Positions 5,719-9,607 of a DNA stretch of 64,000 nucleotides are shown piece after piece. The notes beneath the pieces are model-generated. The model made no database searches. It saw nothing but the letters and a program-made list of their open reading frames with translations, and was not told the origin of the DNA. This DNA is from Dictyostelium discoideum (lineage: Eukaryota), in the NCBI GenBank assembly GCA_000004695.1, contig CM000155.2, forward strand, positions 3,488,001 to 3,552,000, written 5' to 3'. A program made the position numbers and the translations under genes. Position 1 is the first letter of the stretch, and each line of letters starts with the position of its first letter.

Positions 5719-8700
5719 TTATAGACCTTCTATTGGTTTAGAACTTTCCATTAATCGAAATGAAATTGGTTTTCCATTATTCTTATCACTATTGCTTCCA
5801 CTATTACTACTACCACTATTATTACCATTGTTACTACCATTACTATTTATTGATTCTATGGTACTACGGCTATTTGATTCAGTTTGATTGGAATTTTTAT
5901 GATTTCTCAATAAAACTTTTGACTTTGATAATTGGTTAGTTTGGGTAAGTTGATGTAATTGGTCCAATTTTTGAGAATTTAAAATATCTTGAAATGGAGA
6001 TTGTGCTAAAAATGAATTACTTTCAAAGTTTGGAACATGGTCATTGCCACCAGGAGTTGAAAATGCTGATAAATTACTATTATTACTTATATTATTATTA
6101 TTATTATTATTATTATTATTTTGATTTTGATTTTGATTTGAAAAGTATTTTGGAGTTGATGAAATTTTATTTATTATAGCTGCAGCAACAGAAGAGGTTG
6201 TGGTTGTAGGTGATGATAAAGGAGTTGATGAAGATGATGTTGGTGTGGAAGAAGCAGATGCAGAATTTGAAATTTGTTGAACAAAAGAAGAGGGAGAAAG
6301 AGAAGAAGATGAAATATTACCCAATCCCAGTATTTTTCTTGCTTTGGAGAATAATGATTTGTTTGGATTATCTTTTAATAATTTTAATGCCATAAATGAT
6401 GAATCCATTTGTGGTACTTTATCTCCACCACTACTACTTCCATTATTATCGTTTTCATTATTGTTTTCTTCATTATTTTCAAAGCTATTACTCGCACTAC
6501 TATTGCTATTGTTATTGTTATTAGTACCTAAACAAATTGAATTGTAGGTGTTATTAATATTTTGTGGTGTTGATGAAGATTGCCCATAGTTATCATATTC
6601 TTGTGGATAAGAATATGGTTTTGAGTTTGGTGAAAATCTAGATTTAAATTTGGTTTTACCAGGTGTAGGCGGATTATTATTATTATTATTATTAAAAACA
6701 TTATCATCTGGAGTGAATGGAACAGTAGCTAAATCTGATTGATTATTTGGAGTTGATGACGAAGATGCTGCTGATGATGATGATGATGATGATGATGATG
6801 ATGATGATGATGATGATGATGATGATGATGATGATGATGATGATGATGATGATGAATCTAAATAATTTTTATGATGGTTGTTATTAAGTTTTGCATTGAT
6901 TGTTAGCAATGAATTTTTATCAATACCTGATGATGATAGCTGAATTACTTTTGTAGCTTTGCTTGCGCTATTACTACTACTACTACTACAACTACTACTA
7001 CTAATACTACTATTATTTGAATAAGATGGTGTGGATAAAGTTGAAGAAGCTGTGGTTGAATTATTTTTATATGGTGATTGTTGATAATTACCTTGAGGAG
7101 GTTGAGGTTGAGCAAATTCGTTATGATTGTGATTATGATTATTATTATGATTATTATGATTATGACTATTATGATTTGGATTATGGTTATTATTATTATT
7201 ATTATTATTATTATTATTATTATTATTATTATTATTATTATTATTATTATTATTATTATTATTATTATTATTATTATTATTATTATTATTATTATAATTG
7301 CTATGATTATTAATTTTATTAAAAGGAGAATTAAAATTCTTTAATGGACTGATAGTATTAGGAATCTTTGGTGAATTAAAATCAAGATATTCATAATTTT
7401 TCATTGGTGTTTCAAAAAAGTTTGTATGTAAAGGAGATCTTAATGGTGATAAACCTGAATTGTCCAAAAATGACTCTTTATTATTTTTATTTTGAATTGG
7501 TGAAAATAAAATATCCGGAAATTGTGAACATAAATCTGCACTAAATGATTCATTGTTTTTCTAAAATTATTATTATTTTTATTTTTATTATTATTATTAG
7601 TACTAATTTAAAAAAGAACAAAAAAAAAAAAAAGAAAAAAAAGATTTCTTACAGTGGGTGTTGCAGATGAAAAATCCAATCTTGGTCTCTTATTATTATT
7701 ATTGTTATTATTATGATGATGATGATGATGATTATTATTATTGTTATTATTATTATTAGTGTTTTCATTATTATAATTTTTACTACTGCTATTCATTGAA
7801 ACCGTTGCAGTTTGAAAGAATTTAATCGGTGTCACTATATTTGCCATTAACTCTCCAGGGCTGTTTAATTTATTTGCAATATTGACATGAGCCAAATTTT
7901 TTGGTGTTGATGGTAGTTGTGCTATATTACTATTTAGTTGTGATGGTGGTTGTAGTGATACATTATTATTTATTGTGTTATTATTGTTATTGGTATTGGC
8001 ACTAACATTGCTATGATTATTATTATTATTATTATTATTATTATTATTATTATTATTATTATTATTATTAATATTATTATTATTATTATTATTGTTATTA
8101 ATATTATTATTATTATTAATATTATTATTGTTATTATTATTATTATTATTATTATTATTATTATTATTATTATTATTATTATTATTATTATTATTATTAT
8201 TATTATTATTATTATTATTTATACATGATATACCATTAGTCATTAAGTATTGAGCGGCAGGAATATCAATTTTATTATTACCATTACTAATATTTTCAAA
8301 TACTATTGGTGAAGATTCGTGTTGATTTATATGTGGTTGAGAAAGAGTTTGTTCGATTTCTGAAGCATTTCTCTTTTTTGGCTGTTTAATTTTTTTCTCT
8401 TTTTTATTGATTGAAGGTGGTGGTGGTAGTAGTGGTGGTGGTGGTGGTGTAATTAAAGTTGTAGAAGTGGTGGTAGTGGTTGTGGTAGTAGTAGGTATAG
8501 GTGAAGAAGATGTAATAATTGATTTTGGAGAATCTTGATTATCTTGTGAGGATAAAGAATGTTCAATTGCATGTGATTTAAGATGTACATTATTATTTGA
8601 AACTCTTTTCATTGAAGAGTTCCAATGATTTTTAATTGCATTATCAGTTCTACCAGGTAAAAATTTAGCAATTTCCGCCCATTTATTACCATGAATTGCA

Positions 8701-9607
8701 TGTTGATCACGAATGATCTGATCTTCTTCATCTGACCAAGCTTCTTTTTTAATGTTTGGATTCAAATGATTATGCCATCTTTCACGACATTGTTTACCCA
8801 TTCTACCTTTTAAATGAAGTGCAATATCTGACCATTTCTTTGGTCCATAGGTTTTAACCAATTCAATCACTTTATCATCTTCATCTTTTGTCCATGCTCC
8901 TTTCACTAGATTTGGATGTAATACTTTTTGATATCTATGATGACATTGAACATCTGTTCTATCTGGAAAATGCTCTGCTATCTTTTTCCAATTCTTTTGA
9001 TTATGTAAATTTACTGCTTTAATTAAAATTTGATCCTATTAAAATAAAAATAAAAATAAAAAAAAGAATTAAAATAAATTAAAAATTAATGAATGAAAAT
9101 TAATTATTTTTTTTAAAAAAAAAAAAAAAAAATTCTTACTTCTTCAGATGTCCATTTTCCTTTTGTCTTTTTTTTTTCTACCTTTGGTGTATTATTATTA
9201 CTAATATTACTATTACCATTATTATTTATATTATTATTCATATTATTATTATTATTATTATTATTCATATTATTATTCATATTATTTATATTATTATTTA
9301 TATTATTAATTAAATTATTATTATTATTAATACTATTCTTATTTATCGTAAATGGTATTGATATATTATGTCTATTTTGTTGTGAATCATCATCATCATC
9401 ATCGTCTTCTTCCTCTTCCTCTTCATTATTATTATTATTATTATTATTATTATTATTATTGTTGTTTTGATTATCATCATTTTCATTATCACTATTATTA
9501 CTACTATTATCTGAATTTGTATTATTGGCAGCGTTTAGAATCACATTGAAAGGTGACCCTGCTTTTTCTCCAACTGTGAGATTATGTGACATTCTTTTAG
9601 GTTGCAT
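5719..9607 (-). CDS. mybA: Myb-family transcription factor with three tandem Myb/SANT repeats (R1R2R3, c-Myb type). Three exons on the minus strand: 9607..9140, 9035..7653 and 7560..5719. Introns are 9139..9036 and 7652..7561, both phase 0. The total is 1231 codons including the stop, i.e. 1230 aa.
   Basis: R1 is split by intron 1: GKWTSEE|[57 protein letters not shown]2 and R3 follow: [37 protein letters not shown] and [47 protein letters not shown]. The track splits this gene into three ORFs (9113..9607, 7608..8906, 5719..7467). The apparent stop at 7608 lies just inside a GTAAGA donor at 7652. The track ORF 5719..7467 starts at a TTG and is in frame with the acceptor TTTTAG at 7561. The 1230-aa length matches my recollection of D. 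discoideum MybA, so the symbol is a recollection-based guess. Confidence 0.78.

Follow-up and report, generated by a model that had tools for sequence, protein, structure and literature searches.

Three open reading frames of a 64,000-nucleotide Dictyostelium discoideum window are the exons of one c-Myb-type gene, very probably mybA

The minus strand of a 64,000-nucleotide (nt) stretch of Dictyostelium discoideum DNA, hereafter called the window, carries between positions 5719 and 9607 a gene of the c-Myb type, which is analysed here and which is very probably mybA (DDB_G0293900). In a track of open reading frames (ORFs) this gene appears as three separate entries, which a first-pass annotation had joined to a single R1R2R3 Myb gene encoding 1230 amino acids (aa). 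A direct reading of 5719..9607 on the minus strand led to a gene model with three exons of one already described c-Myb-type gene, which has the following features.

9113..9607, minus strand: ORF 1, 164 aa, ATG start
7608..8906, minus strand: ORF 2, 432 aa, GTG start
5719..7467, minus strand: ORF 3, 582 aa, TTG start
9140..9607, minus strand: exon 1, 468 nt, aa 1-156, with the ATG at 9607
9036..9139, minus strand: intron 1, 104 nt, phase 0, GTAAGA...AATAG, splitting Myb repeat R1 at GKWTSEE/DQILIKAV
7653..9035, minus strand: exon 2, 1383 nt, aa 157-617
7561..7652, minus strand: intron 2, 92 nt, phase 0, GTAAGA...TTTTAG, junction SSATPT/KNNESF
5719..7560, minus strand: exon 3, 1842 nt, aa 618-1230, with the TAA at 5721..5719
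8604..9163, minus strand: R1R2R3 Myb DNA-binding domain, span including intron 1, aa 149-300

Spliced in frame, the exons of 468, 1383 and 1842 nt total 3693 nt, which correspond to 1231 codons with one terminal TAA and yield a protein of 1230 aa. This is the codon sum which the first-pass annotation had given, and all of its gene-model coordinates turned out to be exact. The AT content was found to be 94% in intron 1, 90% in intron 2, 73-79% in the exons and 78% in the whole window. Exon 1 encodes an Asn-rich region, an acidic E6D7 run (aa 62-74, 9424..9386), the basic stretch KKKTKGK and the first eight residues of R1. Exon 2 continues with the remainder of R1, with R2 and R3, a Thr/Pro-rich linker, basic clusters, an interrupted poly-Asn stretch, the conserved elements IVTPIKFF and KRPRLDF and an H6 run, while exon 3 contributes, among others, the conserved block VPFTP, which is common to the window gene and its orthologues.

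The evidence for intron 1 comes from the Myb domain itself. Pfam family PF00249 matches the window protein in three stretches (E=1.5e-54, cut-off 24.4 bits), the first of which extends over the whole profile (positions 1-46 of 46), lies at aa 149-195 and thus crosses junction 1 at aa 156/157. As a complete R1 repeat exists only once intron 1 is removed, the intron is considered real, in agreement with the first-pass annotation, which had placed it (9139..9036) within the first repeat.

For intron 2 the evidence is comparative and was obtained by aligning the window protein with four dictyostelid orthologues, namely those of Heterostelium album, Cavenderia fasciculata and Acytostelium subglobosum and one EukProt dictyostelid. 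All four keep the blocks which flank junction 2 (K[KR]xRxDF, TPTK/NNESFSADL, ILFSPI, LSPLRSP and FFETPMKN) and likewise the blocks deep in exon 3 (GIDKNSLxTINAKL, VPFTP and DCSFxALKLLKD...KARKIL), all in one protein. The annotated gene of C. fasciculata, mapped to its protein, possesses phase-0 introns at KGKWTLEE/DDILRQ and ISPL/KMNYDY, which correspond to introns 1 and 2 of the window gene in alignment column and in phase, next to one additional intron after aa 308. The Acytostelium gene has a phase-0 intron at IDFSPS/KQTPEH, a few residues from the position of intron 2. Enumeration of the ORF-preserving GT..AG options for intron 2 gave four, and solely 7652-7561 combines a GTAAGA donor with the conserved block. 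The alternative splice choices were rejected, as they either delete 29 conserved codons or retain the stretch FFLFFFF, which is seen in no homologue.

If intron 2 were retained, the Myb protein would end after about 630 aa at the TAA at 7610..7608, and the 582-aa ORF would have to be a separate gene or untranslated. In favour of this, the ORF finder lists the 432-aa and the 582-aa ORF separately, and the two spliced junction sequences, when looked for in metagenome contigs with a view to metatranscriptome reads, gave 0 matches each, which counts against the spliced model as well. The case for splicing is built on comparative evidence, which was judged to be strong. This evidence leaves a retained intron 2 barely credible. 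The downstream ORF has no ATG start, being listed from a TTG, and its frame stays open for 31 codons further upstream, up to the intron 2 acceptor; moreover, an open frame of 614 codons in DNA of 74% AT is not due to chance. The orthologues hold the same motifs contiguously in a single protein, the C. fasciculata gene carries an intron which agrees in column and phase, and read-through would append 14 residues which are found in no homologue. The spliced model therefore confirms what the first-pass annotation had proposed for this part of the gene, i.e., that the apparent stop at 7608, the end of the 432-aa ORF, lies inside intron 2 (7652..7561) and that the TTG-initiated ORF is exon 3. A scan for bacterial promoters and terminators revealed no enrichment (59 found versus 55.5 expected) and is irrelevant to a eukaryote.

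With R1 restored, the window protein has the three tandem repeats that define c-Myb-type factors, each a Myb/SANT repeat about 50 aa long in which aromatic residues recur at regular spacing. Tryptophans were identified at aa 152, 172, 204, 224, 243, 256, 275 and 294, and in R1 the third aromatic position is occupied by a tyrosine. Alignment with R1R2R3 of mouse c-Myb (PDB 1h88_C) is ungapped (E=1.5e-67), with 100 of 152 residues identical (66%), whereby identity amounts to 54% for R1, 75% for R2 and 69% for R3. In the same alignment the recognition-helix segments of R2 (14 residues) and R3 (11 residues) are identical to those of c-Myb. The c-Myb-DNA complex is characterized by the recognition of YAAC(G/T)G sites, and the base contacts were reportedly assigned by Ogata et al. 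1994 to Lys128, Glu132, Lys182, Asn183, Asn186 and Ser187. Given the identity of both recognition helices, the window protein would be expected to bind YAAC(G/T)G likewise.

The assignment of this gene to mybA was based on length, orthology and genomic surroundings. A length of 1230 aa is presumably also that of D. discoideum MybA (UniProt P34127). Searches for homologues returned one strong match related over the full length in each of H. album, C. fasciculata and A. subglobosum; those from H. album and C. fasciculata are named 'myb transcription factor'. Matches to CfaA_B_C and to the FNIP repeat family, both typical of Dictyostelium, were obtained for further ORFs of the window. According to Forbes et al. 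2019 (PMC6873476, supplementary file 4), mybA equals DDB_G0293900 and is conserved in all five dictyostelid genomes compared, with one orthologue in each of the four others (DPU_G0055346, DLA_01330, PPL_12522 and DFA_08024). The same work lists DDB_G0293934 as a gene of the NDT80 family, and an ORF with NDT80_PhoG and Peptidase_S74 domains, located 23 kb from the Myb gene, fits this entry, even though the closeness of the two identifiers is only circumstantial. The first description of mybA is that of Stober-Grasser et al. 1992 (Oncogene 7:589), going by its citation in PMC9409031. The identifier DDB_G0293900 was not found in the main text of the literature searched, and a 2025 Biol Open paper which had matched the term 'mybA' was set aside, as it concerns mybAA, a different gene.

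Several points weigh against this assignment. The exact 1230-aa sequence was not found in a collection of 15 billion proteins, and among the 1926 matches of the homology search there was no protein of D. discoideum or D. purpureum, so that the source organism itself seems to be missing from the collections. Both the identity to P34127 and the match in length are hence probable only. Moreover, several other Myb genes of D. discoideum possess multiple repeats as well, and hence the R1R2R3 arrangement is in itself no proof of mybA. The gene might thus be of the c-Myb type without being D. discoideum mybA, either as another paralogue or as the mybA orthologue of a close Dictyostelium species or strain. 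Such a view is favoured by the fact that no D. discoideum record of the collections searched matched directly and by the roughly 30 Myb genes which Forbes et al. 2019 list for D. discoideum. It is nevertheless improbable, as the domain is c-Myb-like with 66% identity over all three repeats, the best dictyostelid matches form a single orthologous set with one member per species and common C-terminal motifs, the length equals the 1230 aa which MybA presumably has, and the NDT80-family neighbour fits the closeness of DDB_G0293900 and DDB_G0293934. The gene hence remains very probably mybA, and in this respect nothing new is added, as the Myb gene was known and cloned in 1992 and its repeats are a known property of the genome. 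What the gene does show is that ORF tracks of the bacterial style break up eukaryotic genes, and that the manual splicing of the first-pass annotation was accurate to the base.

Outside the Myb domain the protein is mostly of low complexity, with basic clusters resembling nuclear localisation signals and with short conserved motifs, several of which carry Ser/Thr-Pro. A Pfam scan (E<=10) of six non-repeat segments from this part gave noise only and no match to Cmyb_C. Overall, the protein consists of 27% Asn and 15% Ser. Repeats were counted by Tandem Repeats Finder together with a count of exact runs, which yielded three long trinucleotide tracts.

8012..8219, minus strand: interrupted (AAT)n tract, 69.3 units, 94% match, encoding N33-I-N5-I-N9-I-N18, aa 429-496
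7187..7295, minus strand: pure (AAT)36 tract, encoding N36, aa 707-742
6772..6855, minus strand: pure (TCA)28 tract, encoding S28, aa 853-880

Three long pure tracts of about 65, about 33 and 25 units had been reported in the first-pass annotation, with the third encoding poly-Ser. The three tracts exist and the third does encode serine (S28), but the first is not pure, as its longest pure runs comprise 18 units (8016..8070) and 29 units (8131..8219) with five substitutions between them, and the unit counts were slight underestimates of the 69, 36 and 28 units measured. In the window, 32 pure trinucleotide runs reach 10 units or more, the longest having 52 units, and such tracts are hence typical of the genome and not special to the Myb gene. 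The longest pure run, (AAT)52, is located at 24830..24985 within a 387-aa ORF without a Pfam match.

Apart from the DNA-binding domain, conservation is highest in a C-terminal block, which is kept in five dictyostelids.

6325..6408, minus strand: conserved C-terminal motif, 28 residues, aa 1002-1029, predicted helix-turn-helix and candidate partner-binding module

For a 50-aa segment containing this motif, AlphaFold2 predicted two helices (residues 14-23 and 28-37) connected by the turn DNPN, with a predicted local distance difference test (pLDDT) score of 75-82 in the core. A possible counterpart is the domain with which animal B-Myb binds MuvB, with the pattern W....ACG.T.DQ....AR..L (Vorster et al. 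2020, PMC7225089), in which mutation of the DQ pair abolishes LIN9-LIN52 binding in Drosophila. In the analysis of Vorster et al. 2020 this domain was absent from amoebozoan Mybs, whereas in Amoebozoa LIN9 as well as LIN52 retains its Myb-binding domain. A profile of the animal domain was built from a 25-sequence alignment of matches to the C-terminus of a coral Myb. When compared by hhalign with the alignment of the dictyostelid motif, it matched without gaps over 45 columns (P=1.6e-4, probability 50%). When the animal profile was compared with the alignment of full-length dictyostelid proteins, its top local match was again the motif (aa 993-1037, score 23.3, P=0.0055), and none of 300 column-permuted profiles reached this score (mean 12.3, standard deviation 2.8, maximum 21.4). 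Likewise, when the whole animal region of hinge plus domain was used, the pair of motif and domain remained the top match (P=0.0086).

A number of results weigh against a relationship with the MuvB-binding domain. Compared with the crystallised B-Myb peptide 6c48_F of the PDB (APMSSAWKTVACGGTRDQLFMQEKARQLLGRL), the motif is identical in 7 of 32 ungapped residues, a low count, and the ACG.T.DQ core invariant in animals, including the DQ pair, is missing from it. Searching with hmmsearch gave 2-3 bits, which derive from the KAR..L part alone, and similarity to the animal Myb hinge is not significant (P=0.35). Pfam (E<=10) gave no support for a MuvB-binding domain in the window protein, a profile search of the PDB with the motif returned chance matches only (importin, EZH2 and DnaJ), and the motif alignment retrieved nothing when used in a word-indexed search. 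When 1.84 billion representatives were searched exhaustively with HMMER, only the dictyostelid members and three repeat-protein artefacts were recovered but no bridging sequences, and Foldseek found no matches for the 50-aa AlphaFold2 model, which is too short for this purpose. A generic amphipathic helix for the binding of co-activators is an equally simple explanation of aa 1002-1029. That the motif is a highly diverged counterpart of the B-Myb domain was therefore considered suggestive only and is rather doubtful. If true, the link between Myb and MuvB would predate animals and change the published view of an animal-only origin of the domain, and it would explain why LIN9 and LIN52 of Amoebozoa retain Myb-binding surfaces.

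Considered as a whole, this is a single gene on the minus strand, almost certainly mybA, in which splicing of three exons gives a 3693-nt coding sequence for a 1230-aa transcription factor, which is expected to reside in the nucleus. Its only large folded module is the N-proximal R1R2R3 domain, which is predicted to contact YAAC(G/T)G sites through the major groove. The remainder is mostly low-complexity linker, arising from translated AAT and TCA repeats (poly-Asn and poly-Ser) with scattered conserved motifs, and the conserved C-terminal helix-turn-helix motif presumably recruits partners.

The window contains further genes around the Myb gene. Convergent with it and with stops about 500 base pairs apart lies an 804-aa ORF rich in Asn, Gln, Ser and His (2804..5218, plus strand), which is listed with a TTG as start, has no Pfam domain and probably possesses an upstream exon. 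Two RhoGEF ORFs follow on the other side: the first (12795..15299, plus strand) stops inside the DH domain (profile positions 2-141 of 180), and the second (18582..20825, minus strand) enters the DH profile at position 25 and has a villin headpiece at its end; an extension into neighbouring exons is probable for both. The NDT80-family candidate already mentioned is a 1015-aa ORF (32311..35358, minus strand), in which NDT80_PhoG is combined with the intramolecular chaperone Peptidase_S74 in a MYRF-like architecture, and which may be DDB_G0293934. Two adjacent ORFs on the minus strand (40888..41844 and 41959..44055) match Sec15_C (E=1.5e-47) and EXOC6/Sec15_N (E=3.1e-42), respectively, and are evidently one exocyst Sec15 gene split by an intron of about 115 nt, the same artefact of the ORF track as in the Myb gene. 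A single gene for tRNA-Ile (anticodon AAT) is located at 46943..47015 on the plus strand, and an ORF with a CfaA_B_C domain (counting factor-associated protein, E=4.7e-18) at 48699..49715 on the plus strand. At the far end, a 3062-aa ORF (53638..62826, minus strand) has no Pfam match at E<=0.001, and the adjoining 1222-aa ORF (49923..53591) shows only a weak match to GHMP_kinases_N.

Among known Myb proteins, the MYB3R factors of plants provide the most numerous strong matches, with 56-73% identity over the Myb domain. This similarity is limited to about 13-17% of the window protein, i.e., to the Myb domain, and most of the plant matches carry a precomputed PF15963, a family which was absent from the Pfam matches of the window protein. 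The vertebrate proteins c-Myb, A-Myb and B-Myb (PDB 1h88, 1mse and 1a5j) share the R1R2R3 arrangement, with the ungapped 66% identity and the identical R2 and R3 recognition helices described above. They differ from the window protein in that the latter lacks a Cmyb_C match at E<=10 and has Tyr as third aromatic residue of R1, where vertebrates have Trp. Fragments resembling the animal Myb hinge (TP(I/V)KxLPFSPSQF and TPTPFKNAL) are dispersed in the window protein, without significant profile-profile similarity, and to the animal MuvB-binding domain there is a weak profile-profile resemblance, with the invariant core missing.

The closest counterparts are the dictyostelid orthologues from C. 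fasciculata (XP_004355527.1), H. album (XP_020429440.1) and A. subglobosum (XP_012755225.1), which are 67-81% identical to the window protein in the Myb domain. Two of the orthologue models look fused to a neighbour: that of H. album has about 1300 residues before the Myb domain which do not align to the other orthologues, and the EukProt model ends in an unrelated C-terminus resembling purple acid phosphatase (PF14008, PF00149 and PF16656); both fusions are probably annotation errors. The low-complexity parts of the orthologues are much shorter, the long poly-Asn and poly-Ser tracts being specific to the window gene. Window protein and orthologues have in common the motifs DIPxxQ, VTPIK, K(R/K)xRxDF, ILFSPI, LSPLRSP, GIDKNSLxTINAKL, VPFTP and DCSFxALKLLKDxxKxSIFxKARKIL. 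D. discoideum MybA, which is very probably the product of the window gene, likewise comes from a dictyostelid gene and has a c-Myb-type domain whose three repeats are highly conserved.

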